This document shows positions 3,581 to 60,870 of a DNA stretch of 64,000 nt, piece by piece. The position numbers and the translations under genes were made by a program. The DNA comes from Mobula hypostoma. Its lineage: Eukaryota. The stretch is from the NCBI RefSeq assembly GCF_963921235.1, contig NC_086097.1, positions 106,332,001 through 106,396,000 of the forward strand, read 5' to 3'. A model generated the notes under the pieces. It was not told where the DNA came from. It did no database searches and worked only from the letters and a program-made list of their open reading frames with translations. Numbering within the stretch: the stretch's first letter is position 1; every line of letters begins with the position of its first letter.

Positions 3581-3849
3581 AACACAGAATAGGTCCATCC
3601 AGCCCTTTGAATCATGCCACCCGGCATATTTAACTCTTGCCTAATTATGGGACAATTTACAATGACCAACTAACTGACTAACTAGACTGCCTTTGGACTG
3701 TGGGTGGAAACCAGAGCACCTGGAGAAAACCCACTGTAGTACAGGGAGGATATACAAACTCCTGAAAGAGGATGCCAGGATTGAACTCTGAACTCTGATG
3801 TCTTGAGCTGTTATAGCTTCGTGCTAACCAAAATGCTACGGTAGCGTCC
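3581..3849 (-). mobile_element. V-SINE/HE1-like tRNA-derived SINE
   Basis: Shares the core 'gggtttcc..gg.tgctccggtttcctccca' and 'ggtaggttaattggtcattgtaaattgtcc' with copies at 11177 and 31228. Confidence 0.75.
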
Positions 3850-3932
3850 AACTAATGAATGCATCATACTCCTTCTATCAATCCTCTTCATGACCTAAAA
3901 TTTAGCCAAAAACACACTATATCTACTAACAA

Positions 3933-4380
3933 CTCACACAAAATGCTGGAGAAACTCAGCAGGTCAGGCAACATCCATGGAAGTGAACACACAGTCAGTG
4001 TTTCAGGCCGAGATCCTTCTCCAAGACTGGAAAGGAGGGGGAAGACACCAGAATAAAATGGATGAGGGAGGAGAAGAAGGATAGCCAGAAGGTGATAGGT
4101 GAAATCAGGTGGGTGAGAAAGGTCAACGGCTGGAGATGAAGGAATCTGATAGCAACAGAGAGTGGACCATAGGAGAAAGGGAAGGAGAGGCGCCAGTTGG
4201 GTGTGATAGGCAATTGAGAAGAGGTAAGAGACCAAACAGAAGAATAGAAGAAGAGGGAGGGGGAGGAAAATTTGTTTTTACTGGAAGGAGGAATCAATAT
4301 TCACGCCATCAAGTTGGAGGGTAACCAGACGGAATATAATGTGGAGCCCCCTCCACCCTGAGGGTGGCCTCATCGTGACA
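3933..4380 (-). mobile_element. Penelope-like element 3' end/pLTR, truncated
   Basis: Same 3' sequence as the GIY-YIG-bearing copy at 26735-27560; degenerate hammerhead motif near 3993-4030. Confidence 0.75.
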
Positions 4381-4415
4381 TATCCACTGTGTACATACAT
4401 CTATTGATGCTTCTG

Positions 4416-4488
4416 GACACATCTTCAGTGATGTTCCTGGAATCATCGGGTGTTTTGGGTCTTTCAACATCATACAACCTCCTCTAGG
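4416..4488 (-). ncRNA. Candidate permuted hammerhead ribozyme, downstream copy (G12>A decayed)
   Basis: CCUAGA G GA GGUUG UA UGAUGUU GAAA GACCC AAAA CACCC GAU GA U UCCAGG AACAUCA CUGAAGA U GUGUC. Confidence 0.6.
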
Positions 4489-4536
4489 CGACCTAACCGG
4501 GGCTGATCAGACTCCAGCTTGTGTTCAGATGGCTAG

Positions 4537-7500
4537 CTACTTATGATTCCATGGCTCCCCTCTTTTGAGCCACAGCCATCTTGAGGCCCTCTCTGCCGCA
4601 TCGGTGGCACTGCGGATGGCTCTCCTCTTCCTCTCTCCCTCGATGCCCAAAATGCTGAAGGCTCTAACTAAAGAACGGGCCATGAATTCCCTACAACCAA
4701 CCTCCACTGGGAGACACCTCGCTCTCCATCCAGCCTGCTGACAGTTGCTGACCAGTCCTGCGTACTTGAAGAGCTTCCTTTCAAAGGCCTCTTCCAAGCT
4801 ATCTTCCCATGGGACTGTCAGCTCCAGCAGCACCACTTGTTTAGTAGACTCAGACACTAGGACAATGTCTGGTCGCAGGGTGGTGGCTGCGATATGGTTG
4901 GGGAACTTCAGCTGCCCTTTGAGGTCCATCAACAGCTGCCTGTCCCTTGCAGAGGTCAGAATGCCTGCAGATGTTCTTTTGGCAGGTATTGGCTGCTCCC
5001 CAGCTCTGACAAAGGCAATGGTCTGCTTGGAGGGTCGGGACCACTTCGCCCACTCAACACCTGCGCTGACGGCTTCAGCGATGGTCTTCAGGACCTGATC
5101 ATGCCTCCACCTGTACCGTCCCTCACCAAGTGCCCTTGCACAGCCGCTGAGGATGTGCTCCAGGGTTCCTCGCTTGGAGCACAGTGAGCACGCAGATGAC
5201 ACTGCCTTGCCCCATGTATGCAGGTTTGATGGGCTTGGAAGCACATCGTACACTGCCTGGATGAGAAATTGGATGCGGTGTGGTTCGGCTTTCCATGGAT
5301 CAGTCCTGATGAAGGGTCTCGGTCTGCAACGTCGACTGCACCTCTTCCTACAGATGCTGCCTGGCCTGCTGCGTTCACCAGCAACTTTGATGTGTGTTGC
5401 AAAGATCAGCCCAGGTCACTTTCCTCTCAACCGCATTCTCCCACCTTGTCCAAGCTCCCTGTTGCTTCATTCCCACAGCCTTGCAGGCTCTCATCTCCTC
5501 CACTACTGCTCTCACCTCCTCCTGAACTAGACGGCGCCTTTCCTTCCCTCTGTTGTCCATTTGGGGAGTTGGAAAGGATCCTAGCCCAGCTTGGCCTTGT
5601 GTGACCACTCCCACCAGCCTCCTGTCACGCAGCCTCGCCTCTGCCTCCTGAACAGCTTCCTCTGCCCTCCACTTCCTGCCAGTACTTACTTGGATTCCTG
5701 CTCCAGCCACCTTCGGGTCACTTGAGTCCCTATACTGTAGCACTTCTCTGGCTCTTGTTACCTTGAATTCTTCCTCCAAGGATTTGAAGGGCAGTTTCAG
5801 TTTGTTGTGGTGTCCATAGAGTGCGATGCTGCTCAGGCTCTTTGGCAGCCCCAGCCATCTCCTGAGGTGGTTGCTAACCCTCCTCTCTAAGGTTTCGACT
5901 GTCGAGATTGGAACTGCATAGACAAGGAGGGGCCACAGGATTCTGGGAAGAATGCCATGCTGATACGCCCAGGCTTTAAACTTCCCAGGTAGGCCAGACT
6001 TGTCCACAGATTTCAGCCAGCCATCCAACTCGGTGCAGGTTGCCTGAATGGATGTTGTGTCCCTTAAAGAGCTGTCAAAAACTTTGCCTAAGCTCTTGAC
6101 TGGCTTTTCTGTGATGGTTGGGATGGCTGTGCCTGCAATGCTGAACTGGAACTTGTTTTCCACCTTCCCTTTCCTCAGCACCATCGATCTTGATTTGGCA
6201 GGTTTGAAACGCATCTGGGCCCACTCCACCAGCTTTTCGAGCCCTTGCAGAATCCTCCGGCAGCCTGGGACTGATTCTGTGGTGACTGTGAGGTCATCCA
6301 TGAATGCCCTGATAGGTGGTTGCCGTTGAGCGGAATTCATTCTGGGCCCTCTGGACTCTGGTTCAGCAGACTTGGTGAGCATGTTCATGACTAGGGAGAA
6401 CAGTGTCACTGAGATAGTGCACCCTGTGATGATGCCGACCTCCACCTTGTGCCAGGTTGATGTAATTGCTCCTGAAGAGAGCCTCATCCTGAAGTTGCTG
6501 TAATAATCAGCGATAAGGTCTCTGATTCTGCTGGGGACGTGATATTTGGTTAGTGTGAGCTGCACCAGCTTGTGCGGAATGGAGCCATATGCATTTGCCA
6601 GGTCGAGCCACAACACTGACAGGTTGCCCTTGTTCTCTCTGGCTTCCCTGATGAGCTGCGTCACCATACCGATGTGCTCCAGACAACCCGGCATCCCTGA
6701 AATGCCACCCTTCTGGACTGATGTATCAATATAGGTGTTCTTTGTTCAGAAGGTGCACAACCGGTTGGAAACTGCACTGAAGAAGATCTTTGCCTCGACA
6801 CACAGCAGGGAGATGATGCGAAACTGATCTATCTGGGTGACATTTTCCTCCTTCGGGATCCACACCCCTTCAGCCACTCTCCACTGTTCTGGGATCTTCC
6901 CCCTTCTCCAGAAGATTCTCAGGATCTTCCACAGATGCAGCAGGAGTTTGGGGCAGTTCTTGTACACTTTGTATGAGGTGCTGCTTGGTTGTGGAGCCGA
7001 GCTTGCCCTTGCTTTGCGGACGACCTCTCTGACTTCCTTTAGCTGCAGCTCTGACATGTCGAACTGCACATCCGGTTCTGGTGGGTCTATTAGGATGTCG
7101 CACTCTCCCAACTCCTGCTCTCTTTCAGGATCATTATATATCTTCTTCAGATGTTGGTCTATGTCTTCCTGCGAACAGGCCAGTTTCCCACTGCGCTTCT
7201 CCCCCAGCAACTCCTTGGTGAACTTGAAGGGGTTGGTGATAAAGGCAGCACGTTTTCGAGCCCTTTCACGCCGCCACCTCCGATGCCACTCTGCCCGGCG
7301 GAGGACCCTGATCTTCTTTCGTAGTATGCTCATCAGCTGGGCCAAGCTAATGCGCTCCTCTTCTCCTGCCTCCTTGTATTGGGACTTCAGCACTTTCATC
7401 TCCTGCCTGATGTTGTGGATCCTCAATGCTCTTTGGTTCTTCGAGTAAGATGTTTTGGAGCCTTCCTTCTCCTCTTCTCCGAACGGTTCAGCTGCGATAC

Positions 7501-7894
7501 TAACAATAATTGTTGTCATGGCTTGCAGCTTCCTATCAACCCCTCCCTTCGTCGTTGCCTCCAGAATTTGGTTAACATCGTCATCAAACTGCTTCCACAG
7601 TGAAGTCAAGTTAGCTGCAGGTCATTTGATCCGCCTCCTGTTAGACTTCATGTTCGAGGGATTAGTTTGCAACACTTGGAGGTTCCGGGCACTATGGGGT
7701 GACTCCGGGCCTGGCCCCTCCTTCGTCTCACCAGGTTGGACACCTGCGCGTTGTGCTGCTCCTGCTCCCGCCAAACACTTCATCCTCGATTGGTGGATCT
7801 TCAAGCCACGATCGTTCTTGCAGATTTTGCCACATGCACACTGCTTCCTCATCGTCGTTTGTTCATTGACTGGGTCTGATGTCATTATGTCCAT
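4537..7894 (-). pseudogene. Disrupted single ORF (ZnF-RT-CCHC-RLE) of the HERO-like element
   Basis: ORFs 7894-7622, 7609-6746 and 6694-5375 share one frame, separated by two stops. Removing the 106-nt insertion at 5296-5401 puts 5253-4537 in the same frame (~1083 aa). Confidence 0.85.
5296..5401 (+). mobile_element. Short Penelope-like tail (minimal hammerhead plus 3' tail) inserted in the HERO-like ORF
   Basis: cagtcctgatgaagggtctcggtctgcaacgtcgactg...gtgtgttgc interrupts the codons WADL|WKAEPH. Confidence 0.85.
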
Positions 7895-8128
7895 CCGACT
7901 AGGGTGCTCATCCTCCCCCCCTCTCGGGCACCCCTAGGGGTATCTTTTCCTTAGATTCTTTGTGGCTTTTGTGGGGTCCTCCTCTCAGAGGATGCAGATT
8001 GGGTTGCCAGCCCGTTCTGCCCTTGTTGCCGTCTCTCCGGGCTGTCACAGACTCTCCAGTCGTCACCACTCTTTTCGTGGTTGTCACCCAGTCTTTCCTG
8101 GCTGTCACTGATTAACTCAGGGTGTAAG

Positions 8129-8452
8129 CTGTGTACATACATCTATTGATGCTTCTGGACGCATCTTCAGTGATGTTCCTGGAATCATCGGGTGTTTCAG
8201 GTCTTTCAACATCATACAACCTCCTCCAGGTGACCCAGTCGGGGCTGATCAGACCCCAGCTTGTGTCCAGGTGGCTAGCTACTTATGACTCCATGGCTCT
8301 CCTCTTTTGAGCCACAGCCATCTTGAGGCCCTCTCTGCCGCATCGGTGGTACTGCGGATGGCTCTCTCTCCCTCGATGCCAAAAATGCTGAAGGCTCTAA
8401 CTAAAGAACGGGCTATGAATCCCCTACAACCATCCTCCACTGGGAGACACCT
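8129..8452 (-). repeat. Direct repeat of the HERO-like 3' end placed head-to-tail at its 5' end
   Basis: Aligns by eye to 4387-4719 with scattered substitutions and a short deletion; abuts the full copy at 8128/8129 with no spacer. Confidence 0.92.
8158..8230 (-). ncRNA. Candidate non-circularly permuted hammerhead ribozyme with k-turn, upstream copy
   Basis: CCUGGA G GA GGUUG UA UGAUGUU GAAA GACCU GAAA CACCC GAU GA U UCCAGG AACAUCA CUGAAGA U GCGUC. Core CUGANGA, GAAA and UH are present with 7-bp stem I; predicted cut between 8215 and 8214. Confidence 0.7.
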
Positions 8453-16672: not shown

Positions 16673-18949
16673 CGATGGCTTTTAGAACGCTTTGTGTTTG
16701 AAACCACTAGGGAAGAAGCAATTCTGGATTGGGTGTTATGCAATGAAACAAATTTCATTAGGGAGCTTAAGGTAAAGGAACCCTTAGGAAGCAGTGATCA
16801 TTATATGCTAGAGTTCACCCTGCAGTTTGAGAGGGGAGAAGATAAAATCAAATGTATCAGTATTACAGTAAAGTAAAGGGAATTAAAAAGGCATGAGACA
16901 GTAGCTGGCCACAGTTGATTGGAAGGTGACACGAGCAGGGGGTGATGGCAAAACAGCAATGGCTGGACTTTCTGGGGACAGTTCCGAAGTCACAGGATAG
17001 ATACATCCCAAAGATGAAGACTATTCTAAAGGGAGGATGAAGCATCCCTGGTTGACTAGGGAAGTCAAAGATAGCATAAAACCCTAATGCGAGCATACAA
17101 TATAGCAAAAATTGGTGGGAAGTTAGAGGATTGGGAAGCTTTTAAAAACCAAGTGAAAAAGCCATAAGGAGCGAGAAAATATAATATGAAGAGAAGCTAG
17201 CCATTAATATAAAAGAGGTTACCTTAAGTTTTTTCAAATATATAAAGCGCAAACAGCTGGACCCTGGTAAGTAGTAATGGGGGACAAAGAAATGGTGGGC
17301 GAACTTAACACACATTTTGCATCAGTCTTCATTATGGAAGACACTATCAGTATCAGAAATTTGAGGGCGTCAGGGGGCAGAAGTGAATGTTGTTGGTATT
17401 ATTAAGGAGAAAGTGCTTGGGAAGATGAAAGGCCTCTGAAGGTAGATAAACCACCTGGACTAGATCAACTACACCCCAGGGTCCTGAAAGAAGTAGCTGA
17501 AGAAATTGTGGAATTATTAGTAATGATTTTTCAAGAATTATTAGATTCGGAAGGACTGGATAATTGCAAATGTTACTGCACTTTTTAAGAAGGGAGGGAA
17601 GCAGAAGAAATGAAATTCTAGGCCTGACTTCAGTGTTTAGGAGGATATTGGAGTCCATTATTAAGTATAAGGTTTTAGTGTACTTGGAGGCAGATGATAA
17701 AACAGACCAAAGTTGGCATGGTTTCCTAAAGGGGAAATCTTACCGGATAATCTGTGGGAATTCTTTGAGGAAATAACAGGCAAGATAGACAAAGGAGAGT
17801 TGGTAGATGTTGTTTATTTGTTTTTCAGGAAGCCTTTGACAAGGTTGCACATGTGGTTGCTTTGCAAGATAGAAGATTGGCTGATTGGCAGAAGACAGAG
17901 TGAGAATAAAGGGACCTTTTCTGGTTAGCTGCCGGTGCCTAGTAGGGTTTCACAGGGGCCAGTATTGAGACCACTACTTTTTACTTTATATGTGAATGAT
18001 TTGGATTAAGGAATTGATGCCTTTGTGGCCAAGTCTGTGGATGATATGAAGATAGGTGGAGGGGCAAGTAGTTTTGAGGAAGTAGGGTGTCTGAAGATGG
18101 ACTTGGACAGATTGAGAGAATGGGCAAAGAAGTAGCAGATGGAATATAGTGCAGGGAAGTGCATGGTCGTGCAATTTGGTAAAGGAGTAAGGGTGTAGAT
18201 TATCTTACAAATGGGGAGAAAATTAAAACATTGGATTTGCAAAGAGACTTAAGAGTTTTTGTGCAGGATATGGTACAGGTTAACTTCCAAGTTGAGGCAA
18301 ATTCAATGTTAGCATTTATTTAGAGAGGACTAGAATATAAGAGCAAGGATGTGATGTTAGGCTTTATAAGGCATTGGTCAGACTGCATTTGGAGTATCGT
18401 GAGCAGTTTTGGGCCCCTTATCTCAGAAAAATGTGCTGGCATTGGAGCGGGTCCAGAGGAAGTTCACGAGAATGACCTGGGAAAGAAAAGTTTAACATAT
18501 GAGGAACGTTTGATGACTCTGGACCTGTACTCGCTGGAGTTTAGAAGAATGAGGGGGGATCTCATTGAAATCTACCAAATATTGAAAAGTCTGGATAGAG
18601 TGAATGAAGGGAGGATGTTACCTATAGTGGGTGAGTCTAAGACCAGCGAGCACAGCCTCAGAATAGAGAGACGTCCATTTAGAACAGAGATGAGGAGGAA
18701 TTCCTTTAGCTGGAGGGTGGTGAATCGGTGGAATTCATTGCCATAGACAGGTGTGGAGACCAAGTCTTTGAGTATATTTAAAGCAGAGGTTGATAGGTTC
18801 TTGATTAGTCAGGGTGTCAAAGGTTAAGGGAAGAATGGTGTTGAGAGGGATAATAAATGAGTAATCTTGGAAATGTGGAGCTGAATTGATGGGCTGCATG
18901 GCCCATTTCTGCTCCTATGTATTATGGCTGTGCTGTCTTTGGTCAAATA

Positions 18950-32014: not shown

Positions 32015-32385
32015 AAGTACGAGGAAATCTGCAGATGCTGGAAATTCAAGCAACACACACAAAAACTGCTGGTGAACGCAGCAGGCCAGGCAGCATCTAT
32101 AGGAAGAGGTACAGTCGATGTTTTGGGCCGATACCCTTCATCAGGACTAACTGAAAGAAGAGATAGTAAGAGAATTGAAAGTGGGAGGGGGAAGGGGAGA
32201 TCCGAAATGACAGGAGAAGACAGGATGGGAAGGGATGGAGCGAAGAGTTGGAAAGTTGATTGGCAAAAGGGATACGAGGCTGGAGAAGGGAGAGGATTAT
32301 GGGACGGGAGGCCTAGTGAGAAAGAAAGTGGGGGGAGAAGCCAGGAGGATGGGCAAGGAGTTATAGTGAGAGGGACAGAGACAGA
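32015..32385 (-). mobile_element. Penelope-like pLTR with minimal hammerhead
   Basis: Reverse strand reads cagttagtcctgatgaagggtatcggcccaaaacatcgactgt. Confidence 0.85.
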
Positions 32386-40350: not shown

Positions 40351-40561
40351 CACCTGAAATTCCCACAACCTATGACCAATGTTCCCTCTAATTTTTAGTA
40401 GTCAGTGTGTGCAAAAATCTTATGTTGTGCAAATTTTTTTTCCTGTGACAAAAGTATGTGCGTATTGAATGCACACATGGGACAGTTTATGTAGGTTTAC
40501 AAAATACTTGACATAAAACTGCACAGAATAACAACAAAATAACATACATATTTAAGTCACA

Positions 40562-41045
40562 CACACAAAAAATGCTGGTGAACACAGCAGGCCAGGCAGC
40601 ATCTATAGGAAGAGGTGCAGTCGACGTTTCAGGCCGAGACCCTTCGTCAGGACTAACTGAAGGAAGAGTGAGTAAGGGATTTGAAAGTTGGAGGGGGAGG
40701 GGGAGATCCAAAATGATAGGAGAAGACAGGAGGGGGAGGGATGGAGCCAAGAGCTGGACAGGTGATAGGCAAAAGGGATACCAGAGGATCATAGGACAGG
40801 AGGCCTAGGGAGAAAGAAAGGTGGGGGGGGGGAGAGAAGCCCAGAGGATGTGCAAGGATATATATAGTGAGAGGGACAGAGGGAGAAAAAAGAGAGGAAA
40901 AAAAGGGGAAAGAAAAAAATTATAATAATAAATAAATAGATAGATAAATAAATAAGGGACGGGGTACGATGGGGAGGAGGGGCATTAATGGAAGTTAGAG
41001 AAGTCAATGTTCATGTCATCAGGTTGGGCATATTTAATTTTTTAT
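40562..41045 (-). mobile_element. Penelope-like pLTR with 15-bp flanking direct repeat
   Basis: catatttaagtcaca at 40547-40561 and 41046-41060. Confidence 0.85.
40619..40654 (-). ncRNA. Minimal type I hammerhead ribozyme (Penelope-associated), intact core
   Basis: AGUC CUGACGA A GGGUC UC GGCCU GAAAC GUC GACU. Confidence 0.75.
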
Positions 41046-41399: not shown

Positions 41400-41670
41400 G
41401 TATGTATTTAGACAGTAAATTTACTTTGAACCTTGCCTCCATCTGCCAACAATAGTGGTGTCATCAGCAAATCTACAGTTGACATTTAAGCTATGCCTAG
41501 TCACACAATCATGGGTGCACAGAGAGTAGAGCTCTGGGCTAAGCACACATCTTTGAGGTGCGCCTGTGTTGATTGTCAGTGAGGAGATGTTATTACTGTT
41601 CTGCACTGATTGTAGTCACCCAATGAGGAAGTCAATGGTCTAGCAGCAGAGAAAGGCACAGAGGGCTACA
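41400..41670 (-). mobile_element. Rex-Babar fragment
   Basis: TGAPQRCVLSPELYSL and RFADDTTIVG motifs. Confidence 0.8.
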
Positions 41671-43569: not shown

Positions 43570-46500
43570 AAGACCATAACATAAAGGAGCAGTTTAAGTT
43601 ACTTGATCCATATCAAGTAGGATATGAGGCTCAAAGTTTTCGGACGGACTCAAGAGTCGGCTGTGGTCGGGTTTTTGTCAGTTTTTCAGTCTTGGTCTGT
43701 CTTGTGTTTCTGTGGATATCATACTGGTGGAACATTGTATCATTTCTTAATGCATGCATTACTAAATGACAATAAAAGAGGACTGCGTGTCCTCATAATC
43801 ATAATCATAATAATATAGTCTGATCTGCCATTTTATCATGGCTGATCTAATTTTCCTCTCAGCCCAAATCTCCTGTCTTCTCCCCGTATCCCTTCATGCT
43901 CTGAACAATCAATATTCTATCAACCTCTGCCTTAAATATATATAAAGACTTGGCCTCCACAGGTGCCCGTGGCAAAGAATTCCAGTGTTTCACCAATCTC
44001 TGGCTCAAGAAATTCCTCCTCATCTCCATTTTAAAAGGAAGCCCCTCTATTCTGAGGTTGTGTCCTCTGATCTTAGTTCTGCCACCATCGGAAACATCCT
44101 CTCCATATCCATTCTTTCACTGTCTGATACGTTTCAATGAGGTCACCCCTCATTCTTCTGAATACCAGTGAATACAGGCCCAGAGCTATCAAAAGCTCTT
44201 AATATGACAAGCCATTCAATCTTGGAATCATTTTTGTGAACCTCCTTTGACCCTCTCCTGTTTCAGTACATCCTTTCTAAGATAAGGGACCGAAAACTGC
44301 TCACAATACTCCAAATGAGGCCTCACCAGTGCTTTATAAAGTTTCAACATTGCATCCTTACTTTTATATTCTAGTCCTCTGGAGAATAAAACCAACATTG
44401 CATTTGCCTTCCTCACCACAGATTCAACCTGCAAATTAACCTTTAGGGAATCCTGCACAAGGACTCCCAAATCCCATTACACCTCAGTTTTTTGTATTTT
44501 CTCTCCATTTAGAAAATAGTCAACCCTTTCAGTTATTCGACCAAAGTGCATGACCGCATACTTCCAGACACTGTATTCCATTTGCCATTTCTTTGCCCAT
44601 TTTCCTAATCCCTCCAAGTCCTTCTGCAGCCTTGCCACTTCCTCAAAACTAACTGCCCCCCACCTATCTTCAAATCATCTGCAAATTTTGGAACAAAACC
44701 ATCATTTCCATCATCCAAACCATTGACATATAATGTAAAAATAATTGGTCCCAACACAGACCCCTGTGTCCACTAGTCACTGGCAGCCAGTCAGAAAAGG
44801 CTCCCTTTATTCCCACTCTTTGCCTCCTGCCAATCAGCCGCTGCATTATCCATGATAGAATCTTTTGTGTAATACCATGGGCTTGCAGCTTGTTAAGCAG
44901 CTTCATGTGTGGTACCTTGTCAAAGCCATTTGGAAAATCCAAGTACACAACATCCACCAATTCTCCTTTGTCTATCCTGCTTGTTATTTCTTCAAAGAAT
45001 TCCAACAGATTTGTCAGGCAAGATTTTCCCTTGAGGAAACCATGCTGACTATGACCTATTTTATCATGTGCCTCCAAATACCCTGAAACATCATCCTTAA
45101 TAATCAACTCCAATATCTTCCCAACCACTGAAGCCAGACTAACTGGCCTATAGTTTCCTTTCTTCTGCCTCTCTCTTTTCTTGAAGAGTTGAGTGACATT
45201 TGCAATTTTCCAGTCTTCTGGAACCATTCTAGAATCTAGTGATTCTTGAAAGATCATTACTAATGCCTCCACAATCTTTTCAGCCACCTCATTCAGAACC
45301 GTGGGGTGTACATCATCTGGTCCAGGTGACTTATCTGCCTTCATACTTTTCAGTTTCCCAAGAACCTTCTCCCTAGTTATGGTAACTTCACACTCTTCAT
45401 GCCCCTGGACATTTGGAACTTCCACTATACTGCTAGTGCCTTCCACAGTGAAAACAGATGCAAAATAGTTATTCAGTTTGTTTGCTATTTCATTGTTCCC
45501 CATTACTACCTCTCCAGCACTTTTTTCCAAACAGTCCAATATTCTCTCAGCTCTCTTTTACACTTTAAGTATTTGACGAAACTTCTGGTATTCTCTTTAA
45601 ACTTACTGGCTAGCTTACTTTTGGATTTGAATTTTACCTTAATGACTTTTTTATTTGCTTTCAGTTGGTTTTTAAAAGTTTACCAATCCTGTAACTTCCA
45701 ACTAATTTTTGCTCTGTTATATGCCTTCTCTTTGGTTTTTATGTTAGCTATGACTTCTCTGTTAGCCATGGATGTATCATTTTTGCATTGGAATATCTCA
45801 TCCTCTTTGGGATGTATATATCCAGTTCCTTCTGAATTGCTTCCAGACATTCCAGCCATTGCTGCTCTGCTGTCATCCCTGCCAGTGTTCTTTTCCAATC
45901 AGTTCTGGCCAACTCTCTCTCATTGCTCTGTAATTCCCTTTACTCCACTGTAATACTCATGCATCTGACTTTAGCTTCTCCTTGACAAATTTCAGGGTGA
46001 ATTCAATCATATTATAATCACTTCTCCCTAAGGGTTCTTTTACGTTAAGTTCTCTTATTGATTTTGGTTCATTGCACAACACCTCAATCTAGAGTAACTG
46101 ATCATTTAGTTAGTTCAACCACGTGGTGCTCTAAAAAGCCATCTCGTAGGCACTCTTAGAAATACTCCATCCTGTAATCCAGTACCAAACTGATTTTTCC
46201 AATCTACTTCATATTGAAGTCCCCCATGATTATTGTAACATTGCCCTTTTGGCATGCATTTTCTACCTCCTGTTGTAATTTGTAGACCACATCCTTACTA
46301 CTGTTTGGGAGTTTGTATACAACTCCCATCAGGGTCTTCTTACCCTTGCAGTTCCTTAGCTCTATCCACAATGATTCAACACCTTCTGATCCTATGTTAC
46401 CTCTTTCTAATGATTTGATTTCATTTTTTTGGCAACAGGGCAACACTGTCCCCTCTGCCTTCCTGCCTATCCTTTCAATTCAATGTGTATCCTTGGACGT

Positions 46501-48050: not shown

Positions 48051-48532
48051 TTTCGTCTGGGTAGCCTCCAACATGATGGCATGAACATTGACTTCTCTGA
48101 CTTCCGCTAATGCCCCACCTCCCCCTTGTACCCCTTCCGTTATTTATTTATATACACACATTCCTTTTCTCTCTCTGTCCCTCTCACTATACCCCTTGCC
48201 CATCCTCTGGGTTTTTTTCCCCCTCCCCCTTTTCTTTCTCCCTAGGCCGCCTGTCCCATGATCCTCTCATATCCCTTTTGCCAATTAACTGTCCAGCTCT
48301 TGGCTCCATCCCTCCCCCTCCTGTCTTCTCCCATCATTTTGGATCTCCCCCTCCCCCTCCCACTTTCAAATTTCTTACTAGCTCTTCTTTCAGTTAGTCC
48401 CGACGAAGGGTCTCCGCCCGAAACGTCGACTGTACCTCTTCCTAGAGATGTGGCCTGGCCTGCTGCGTTCACCAGCAACTTTTATGTGTGTTGCTTGAAC
48501 TTCCAGCATCTGCAGATTTCCTCGTGTTTGCG
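48051..48532 (+). mobile_element. Penelope-like pLTR inserted in CR1
   Basis: Near-identical in reverse to 40562-41045; hammerhead at ~48396-48431 with a U4>C change. Confidence 0.85.
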
Positions 48533-60599: not shown

Positions 60600-60870
60600 T
60601 TACAGATACAGAGTGGAACAGACCCTACTGGTCCAATGAGCCGTGCCGCCCAGCAAACCTCTTATTTAACCCAAGCCTAATCACAGGACAATTTACAATG
60701 TCTAATCAACCTACTAGCCAGTACATCTTTGGAATGTGGAAGGAAACGGCAGCACCCGGGGTTAACTTATGTGTTCATACAATCTCCTTACAAATGGCAT
60801 TGGAATTAGACTACAAATTCCGATGCTCCGAGCTGCAATAGCATTGTGCAAATGCTACAACACCATGGTG
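60600..60870 (-). mobile_element. V-SINE-like SINE
   Basis: Matches the copy at 3581-3849. Confidence 0.7.

Follow-up and report, generated by a model that had tools for sequence, protein, structure and literature searches.

Stem III of a folded hammerhead is directed away from stems I and II. Hammerheads of type SGC place the cleavage site, GAAA and CUGAnGA in this 5'-to-3' order, with crossing stems I, II and III together with a short linker between stem I and stem II, and Eckert et al. (2023; PMC10085705) point out the unsolved problem of how stem III's far end comes close to stems I and II. In these ribozymes, which were shown to cleave, block C consists of CUGAnGA and the immediately following stem II strand, and an "I" helix joins the other sides of stems I and II. 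They stem from metatranscriptome, metagenome and RefSeq searches; in the parts of the paper covered here, the text contains neither a link to retrotransposons nor a k-turn or kink, and the supplement contains no k-turn. Kink-turns (k-turns) themselves have been grouped into those that fold in ions, such as the Kt-7 and SAM-I riboswitch k-turns with a 3-nt bulge followed by G.A and A.G, and those that depend on protein, such as U4 and box C/D k-turns (PMC4382518, in excerpt).

Among retroelements, Penelope-like elements have a partial-tandem structure with a hammerhead in both terminal repeats, and a circular template with an internal start of reverse transcription has been proposed or shown for them (PMC4209133, PMC11167929; both in excerpt). 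Their hammerheads are of type I and often minimal, with a palindrome in loop III; palindromic loops have been tied to dimers, and the elements encode a GIY-YIG endonuclease (same excerpts). R2, a non-LTR element with a restriction-like endonuclease (RLE), has an HDV-like ribozyme in its 5' UTR that cuts at its own 5' edge (passages of PMC13708176 and PMC6765202). The HERO clade is named in passages of PMC4640811 and PMC13708176.

The window analysed here is a stretch of 64,000 nucleotides from Mobula hypostoma (NC_086097.1, positions 106,332,001 to 106,396,000). In it, a 3.7-kb element on the minus strand is flanked by a direct repeat of about 330 bp (8129-8452 and 4387-4719, 92% identical). 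Because this repeat bounds the element at both ends, a candidate ribozyme with a k-turn occurs twice; the upstream motif lies 50 nt past the stop codon of a retrotransposon ORF fragment. The element has the following parts.

8129..8452, minus strand: upstream terminal repeat, with the last ORF codons and the 3' UTR with the ribozyme; a partial tandem copy (repeat comparison)
8025..8112, minus strand: short hairpins arrayed in the 5' UTR, their loops rich in purines; located just 3' of the ribozyme and conserved in HERO relatives (comparison)
4537..7894, minus strand: broken single ORF of a HERO/Zebulon-type RLE non-LTR retrotransposon, with stops and frame changes (domain and protein matches)
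4412..4529, minus strand: downstream ribozyme copy with the same k-turn (4488-4436); decayed: 4456 carries A in place of G12, and the NC helix contains a mismatch (parser)
4387..4719, minus strand: downstream terminal repeat; the 3' end of the element is at 4387, 86 nt past the predicted cleavage site (repeat comparison)

The ORF encodes an N-terminal zinc finger-like motif, a reverse transcriptase (RT, PF00078), a zinc knuckle (PF13966, weak) and an RLE-like C-terminus with a conserved RPD..E..K motif. RT, zinc knuckle and restriction-like endonuclease in a single ORF, here broken, are as expected of an RLE element of the HERO clade, and the element also shares the partial tandem structure of HERO and Zebulon. 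A profile of its protein relatives matched the R2 structures 9NL3 and 9DOU. The C-terminal part has 286 relatives, and the named ones among the best 120 are fish or lancelet proteins. It is 64% identical to the Tetraodon polyprotein AAN12398.1 and 59% identical to Takifugu BAC82598.1, which we take to be the Zebulon and HERO proteins, respectively; Zebulon reportedly occurs in partial tandem arrays. On this identity to two pufferfish proteins, we refer to the element as HERO/Zebulon-type. No target-site duplication was found at the window insertion, the longest shared word being 4 nt. A host repeat of about 100 bp sits inside the ORF near 5302-5400 and recurs at 32050-32148, 40559-40654 and 48396-48494. 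Other interspersed repeats of 65-85% identity (16674-18835, 43878-46143 and many shorter ones) abound in the rest of the window, as is typical of a large vertebrate genome.

Like Penelope-like elements, this is a partial-tandem retroelement with a hammerhead in both terminal repeats. It differs from them in its R2-like (RLE) protein, its full permuted monomer ribozyme and the placement of a palindrome on an extra hairpin (cf. the excerpts of PMC4209133 and PMC11167929). Like R2, it is an RLE non-LTR element with a self-cleaving RNA, predicted in our case, at its boundary; in contrast to the R2 ribozyme, that of HERO is a hammerhead in the 3' UTR with a predicted cut in mid-ribozyme (cf. the passages of PMC13708176 and PMC6765202).

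The upstream ribozyme copy is laid out as follows, all on the minus strand.

8155..8270: whole candidate ribozyme; its hammerhead core follows the S-G-C order, and a four-way junction separates A9 from the G-C pair of stem II (descriptor, parser, covariation)
8237..8261: hairpin P2 of the four-way junction; loop palindrome UGAUCA at 8251-8246 (parser)
8199..8236: stem II, pseudoknotted; upstream strand 8236-8232 with 8203-8199, followed by GAAA 8198-8195 (covariation)
8178..8230: k-turn in the distal extension of hammerhead stem III (sequence and conservation in homologues)
8214..8215: predicted cleavage site, after GUA; U16.1 is 8216 and A17 is 8215 (sequence)
8171..8214: stem I, pseudoknotted; 8214-8208 with 8177-8171 (covariation)
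8164..8170: CUGAnGA core, C3-A9 (sequence, blind alignment)
8155..8163: 3' strand of closing helix P1, which adjoins A9 on its 3' side and is paired with 8270-8262 (covariation)

Relatives were collected by a protein-based metagenome scan that is blind to RNA and that returned 79 loci of 287 relatives, with 37-84% amino acid identity. A descriptor of the hammerhead core (order cleavage site, GAAA, CUGAnGA) was run on both strands of 84 fetched loci and the window. It gave 48 matches, one of them in the window, all on the sense strand and 3' of HERO ORFs or one unit upstream. A fuller parser identified 62 ribozyme copies, namely 56 3' copies, 4 upstream copies and the 2 window copies. The parsed 3' ribozyme was thus present in 56 of the 79 metagenome loci, and 16 of the remaining 23 end within 260 nt. 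Where at least 260 nt were available beyond the protein match, the core was intact or had one mismatch in 48 of 55 loci, and a covariance model identified decayed ribozyme copies in 4 of the other 7. Neither parser nor covariance model found a 3' ribozyme in L052, L056 and L059. A distant HERO-like tandem junction in L056 (1320-1400) lacks a hammerhead and has a structured-looking GC-rich 3' UTR segment without an Rfam match at E<=10; this segment could be another ribozyme.

In GTDB genomes, 5 loci were found, mostly on short contigs resembling contamination, and the RNA covariance model found nothing in 2 of the genomes with HERO-like loci. HERO-like fragments on tiny contigs of two bacterial assemblies (L080-L082) are probably contaminating animal DNA. 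IMG/VR contained no protein relatives and 0 matches to one exact ribozyme pattern, a weak negative given the narrowness of the pattern.

The catalytic core is strongly kept in these copies. CUGAnGA, GAAA and UH were intact in 56 of the 62 parsed copies, with one mismatch in the other 6. In 50 copies dereplicated at 90%, residue 17 was A, U or C and never G, which the parser penalised at this position. A structure-blind MAFFT alignment of 31 copies, hand-picked from k-turn clades, placed the hammerhead core in near-invariant columns. In this alignment, 90.5% of the cells paired, compared with 64.9% after shuffling and 36-44% after sliding, and both sides change in 27 of 32 pairs. Stem I was 100% paired, with 4 of 4 pairs compensatory, and stem III was 95.6% paired; both abut the core. 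Kinship alone can let sequences outscore such shuffles, so more weight goes to the slide control and to the range of pair types.

A partner-swap test on the 37 copies that remained after dereplication at 80% (33-37 per helix) compared native with swapped partners. The paired fractions were 0.98 and 0.56 for stem I, 0.98 and 0.69 for stem III, and 0.86 and 0.51 for the NC helix. For stem II (0.97 and 0.63), P1 (0.89 and 0.45) and P2 (0.90 and 0.59) the test is inflated, as the parser picked these partners by pairing. In none of the six helices did any of 2000 shuffles reach the native value. Reads from organism A and two raw DNA runs indicate that flaws at 8161, 8199 and 8239 are private to the window copy; the family letters pair. 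A compensatory swap from U-A to C-G at 8218/8193 was present in run X21. In run X11, presumed to be RNA, a single contig terminates at the predicted cut (8214); contigs cannot show RNA ends, and it is not counted as evidence. Altogether, a functional hammerhead-type ribozyme is very likely, and self-cleavage is predicted.

In the plain type-SGC reading, the strand immediately 3' of A9 would form stem II (10.1-11.1 pair). This pairing was rejected, its paired fraction being 0.44 against 0.43 with swapped partners. The stem II partner is the segment just upstream of the k-turn (8236-8232); a G of this segment pairs with 11.1 beside the core, as G-C or G-U, in 43 of 50 copies. The strand after A9 pairs with a far-upstream strand to form P1, with hairpin P2 lying between, and the three pairs of the junction abut without spacer in 39 of 49 copies. 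The G-C pair that normally follows A9 would thus be supplied by the upstream strand via a four-way junction of core, P1, P2 and stem II. A single extra base at A9/10.1 is known from other hammerheads, so the site tolerates insertion; between A9 and stem II, Eckert et al. (2023, PMC10085705) describe at most one or two extra bases as known. Hammerhead variants with extra helices are said to exist (Weinberg 2015, as cited in a passage of PMC13725137), so that the four-way junction may have precedent.

The HERO ribozyme shares the S-G-C order, the crossing stems and the short linker between stems I and II with type SGC. It departs from that type in that its block C is split by P1 and P2, with the stem II strand upstream, and in that the kinked extension of stem III, not an I helix, joins the other sides of stems I and II (cf. 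the available parts of PMC10085705). It occurs in animal retrotransposons and, whereas type-SGC ribozymes were shown to cleave, is known from sequence comparison. Since an intact block C and the I helix are both missing in spite of the shared order, we do not count it as a type-SGC member and file it as a hammerhead variant outside this type.

The discontinuous stem II, which is unlike any hammerhead in the literature examined, might also point to a non-catalytic RNA domain that binds the HERO protein or a host factor and is a look-alike or descendant of a hammerhead. R2-type proteins bind their RNA in the 3' UTR, and the motif is located there. However, the catalytic letters are held (CUGAnGA with free N7, GAAA, U16.1-A15.1, non-G at 17) while all helices vary, which makes such a domain quite improbable.

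In the window, no Rfam family, hammerhead families included, reached its gathering score. The hammerhead families also failed to match 7950-8350 at E<=10 or 18 loci at E<=0.05. MFE folding did not recover the active fold, which is uninformative for a doubly pseudoknotted RNA. A box C/D snoRNA-like RNA, with the GA pairs belonging to box C/D k-turns, was considered in view of box-like words in the window copy and an Rfam SNORD78 match (E 2.8). The match has 16 bits against a gathering score of 38, and a box C-like word is present in only 7 of 50 copies and a D'-like word in 1 of 50, the latter private to the window copy. The boxes C, D', C' and D expected of such RNAs are not conserved, and this refutes the snoRNA reading, which we rate as hardly credible. 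The SNORD78 match and a U89 match (E 4.7) were rejected as chance.

We now turn to the k-turn of the hammerhead variant (positions on the minus strand). Its NC helix of 6 bp pairs 8230-8225 with 8183-8178 and is followed by the 3n G (8224) and G2n/A1n (8223-8222). The C-stem is stem III, 8221-8217 with 8194-8190, and U16.1 (8216) adjoins its 8221-8217 strand. On the opposite strand, the bulge GAU (8189-8187) is followed by G1b/A2b (8186-8185) and the 3b U (8184). The 3-nt bulge with G1b.A1n and A2b.G2n of a standard k-turn is therefore present at 8189-8185 / 8223-8222. A preliminary description, made from the sequence alone, had given the extent 8178-8230, the 3-nt bulge, the tandem G.A/A.G pairs, the U.G pair and the 6-bp NC helix exactly so. 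It had also placed a C-stem next to the bulge, where two C-G pairs indeed flank the bulge, followed by a C.U mismatch (8192/8219) at position three. The NC helix abuts the stem I strand 8177-8171 without a linker, as had been stated, provided that stem I forms all 7 bp; this is not general, since the linker to stem I measures 0-3 nt in all 38 homologous k-turns. Toward the far end of stem II, the linker is 0-1 nt in 35 of 38.

Taken by itself, the window sequence does not distinguish this k-turn from a chance pattern in decayed repeat DNA. A strict k-turn descriptor found 3 sites on both strands of the window, compared with a mean of 3.1 expected from 20 first-order Markov sequences, and the folding of the k-turn segment was ordinary relative to shuffles (z -1.16 and z -0.67). 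Because the descriptor count is at chance level and the fold no better than shuffles, the single-sequence pattern is not significant, and the case for the k-turn rests on homologues. The two other descriptor matches, at 41555-41581 (plus strand) and 60661-60707 (minus strand), are in keeping with the chance rate.

A register test in the 62 copies used bulge lengths from -5 to +7 as controls. Tandem G.A/A.G pairs with a 3-nt bulge on the 3' strand were present in 47 of 62 copies, and in 38 of 50 and 26 of 37 copies after dereplication at 90% and 80%, respectively. Other bulge lengths gave 0-3 matches, with the exception of lengths 0 (17/62) and 7 (12); GA words within the bulge and the NC strand probably account for these two side peaks. 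The flanking NC helix covaries (swap values given above), with 6 of 6 pairs changing both sides, and the -1b,-1n pair is C-G in 32 of 46 copies. Among the read-mapping rows listed, there were no variants at the four k-turn G/A positions. The conservation of the GA pairs across homologues was the check that the preliminary description had proposed, and its standard k-turn pattern is borne out by it as well as by the sequence. Homologues and covarying helices likewise support its placement of the k-turn in the stem III extension of a permuted hammerhead-like motif. With conservation and covariation in relatives down to about 40% protein identity, the chance reading is refuted and its probability is negligible; the k-turn is almost certainly real and conserved.

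The 15 copies without a full k-turn comprise 5 single-base variants, 5 with other bulges and 5 with a plain bulge on the opposite strand (four families). In a protein tree with 57 rows, the four included loci that have the opposite bulge form one 100/100 clade, and the k-turn spans deep branches. The summed length of both strands is 41-47 nt in the k-turn type and the opposite-bulge type alike. Because one clade swaps the k-turn for a bulge on the other strand, the bend seems to be under selection, and appears to be conserved more widely than the k-turn itself.

The HERO k-turn resembles those of Kt-7 and SAM-I in its 3-nt bulge followed by G.A and A.G and, as in SAM-I, its commonest 3b,3n pair is A.G (11/38); unlike these, it lies inside a predicted self-cleaving ribozyme and has hammerhead stem III as its C-stem (cf. 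excerpts of PMC4382518). According to McPhee et al. (2014; PMC4382518, in excerpt), a k-turn with G at 3n or C at 3b (not both) folds in Mg2+, and Watson-Crick and G.U 3b,3n pairs need protein, a rule derived in the context of Kt-7. By this rule, 28 of the 38 full k-turns are ion-folding, the window copy with its U.G pair included, 5 are poor and 5 unclassified. The window copy thus lacks the 3b,3n pair, unable to fold in Mg2+ alone, that marks protein-dependent (U4 or box C/D-like) k-turns.

The preliminary description had gone further and suggested that cleavage could depend on a host k-turn-binding protein; in its strict form, a host protein of the L7Ae family (15.5K/SNU13) would have to occupy the k-turn first. 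Some observations agree with this. The features are canonical for protein-bound k-turns, with U at L3 in 28 of 38 k-turns and purines at L1/L2, 5 of the 38 k-turns have 3b,3n pairs predicted to need protein, and type-SGC ribozymes are slow, a helper protein having been raised as a possibility (a passage of Eckert et al., 2023, PMC10085705). Against it, the 28 ion-folding k-turns belong to the riboswitch-type and not the U4 class, which makes obligate dependence unlikely, and the ribozyme is kept without the k-turn in four loci of one clade, which have a plain opposite-strand bulge, and in five others. We therefore consider the claim of a required protein improbable. As L3 is so often U, 15.5K may still bind, and L7Ae/15.5K binding may tune the kink without being required. 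Most likely the kink folds in Mg2+ with tertiary support, and folding of the hinge without an obligatory protein is our preferred, and we think probable, reading.

How would such a hinge serve the hammerhead? Located about 5 bp from the core, the k-turn would bend stem III back, so that the ends of the NC helix could join the far ends of stems II and I. The S-G-C strand order requires these far ends to be brought together, and a kink would achieve this joining; since the NC helix connects them through linkers of 0-3 nt, the geometry we infer includes a sharp bend. The idea of a fold-back, already part of the preliminary description, gains support from this reasoning. We conclude that the k-turn is likely the structural hinge of a functional, non-circularly permuted hammerhead in the HERO 3' UTR, in which the three-dimensional fold-back, cleavage and protein independence are predictions.

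In a tandem read-through transcript, cutting of both copies would yield a unit-length RNA, 3742 nt here, whose two ends could re-pair through P1, II, III and NC. Since P1, II, III and NC all bridge the cut, the products should stay together; in 8 copies, about 20-29 bp are predicted to hold them (nested pairs only; -11 to -30 kcal/mol). Reverse transcription of such a clamped or ligated circle might then start at an internal point beyond the junction and continue for over one turn, which would result in a partial-tandem insertion. We give a circle or clamp role of the unit-length RNA roughly even chances; the layout may explain the head-to-tail arrangement of HERO-type elements in genomes. In ten pairs compared, element 3' ends lie 83-342 nt past the predicted cut and never at it, with one pair reaching the limit of the stretch compared. 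It follows that, at either end, insertions were copied over junctions that had stayed uncut or been rejoined. Loose ends in reads were found at 8128-8129, 86 nt past the predicted cut, and copies beginning at 8214 showed no pile-up among the loose-end rows listed. In many contigs the element wraps around at about 3.6-3.8 kb; such contigs may be collapsed repeats, which weakens the case for a circle.

The array that opens the HERO 5' UTR consists of four short hairpins with UGAC-type linkers and is kept in about 24 loci (e.g. L012:2300-2392, L017:2827-2918); it may be a protein-binding, RT-initiation or translation signal. A ribozyme is located 57-138 nt upstream of it in 16 of 25 sense-strand array matches; 4 more follow a partial ribozyme or 3' UTR tail, and 5 have no nearby ribozyme. 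This arrangement would suit a ribozyme that only frees the 5' end of the element from a read-through transcript and perhaps aids translation, with tandems arising by template jumping or insertion next to older copies and the k-turn acting as the same hinge. R2 (HDV-like ribozymes) and L1Tc provide precedents. A tandem of two HERO families that are 70% alike, each with an intact ribozyme (L024:6-2150 and 3736-5872), also agrees with it and argues against a circle, if it is real and not an assembly chimera. However, the cut would cost the element half of its ribozyme, yet both ends of insertions carry an uncut junction, the insertions end well past the site, and the pile-up at 8214 is missing from the read rows listed. 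A role confined to 5' processing appears to be the less likely reading.

Palindromes of at least 6 nt, mainly UGAUCA and UGGCCA, were present in the P2 loops of 31 of 50 copies compared with 6.1 in shuffles, with the reservations that four GACGUC cases may just be tetraloops and that the copies are related and thus not independent. The loops often measure 2+6+1 nt, and UGAUCA and UGGCCA interchange (window 8246-8251, minus strand, and homologues). Palindromic loops of 2+6+1 nt resemble retroviral dimer-initiation loops. Kissing of P2 loops could aid partner exchange. The complete scheme would then be a new hammerhead architecture (four blocks, a four-way junction at A9, a k-turn hinge) that cuts tandems to unit length with the ends clamped by about 25 bp, kissing palindromic P2 loops that swap partners and close a circle, an R2-like protein that copies more than one turn from an internal site, and a host k-turn protein able to tune the cut. 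We put this scheme forward only tentatively.

The ribozyme subtype departs from the protein tree in L011 and L019 and in L015, L016, L023, L025 and L051, several of them with extra sequence between stop codon and ribozyme, which suggests 3' UTR swaps between families. In L043, L057, L066 and L078, tRNA-like A-box/B-box words were noted by eye in the 3' UTR just after the stop codon, upstream of the ribozyme; no Rfam tRNA match at E<=0.05 was found at these words, and an internal Pol III promoter is possible.

In the literature searched, we found no hammerhead in HERO/Zebulon and no natural k-turn in a hammerhead. At keyword level, two reviews from 2026 and one from 2019, Perreault 2011, Forgia 2023 and a retrozyme preprint of 2026 gave the same negative.

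If it cleaves, the HERO motif would be a naturally occurring self-cleaving ribozyme organised around a k-turn, as well as a hammerhead in which the block of CUGAnGA and stem II is split, which the paper defining type SGC assumed to be impossible (PMC10085705). It would also represent a non-circular permutation present in animal genomes at high copy, and one answer to how stem III reaches stems I and II in permuted hammerheads. The architecture would explain why Rfam-type searches miss the HERO ribozyme, and its native k-turn would make this hammerhead a convenient starting point for switches that respond to L7Ae. The HERO clade, now mined for genome engineering, would gain a defined RNA-processing step and a testable path to its partial-tandem insertions and, if the circle reading is true, would include an autonomous RLE LINE that moves via circular or nicked-circular RNA.
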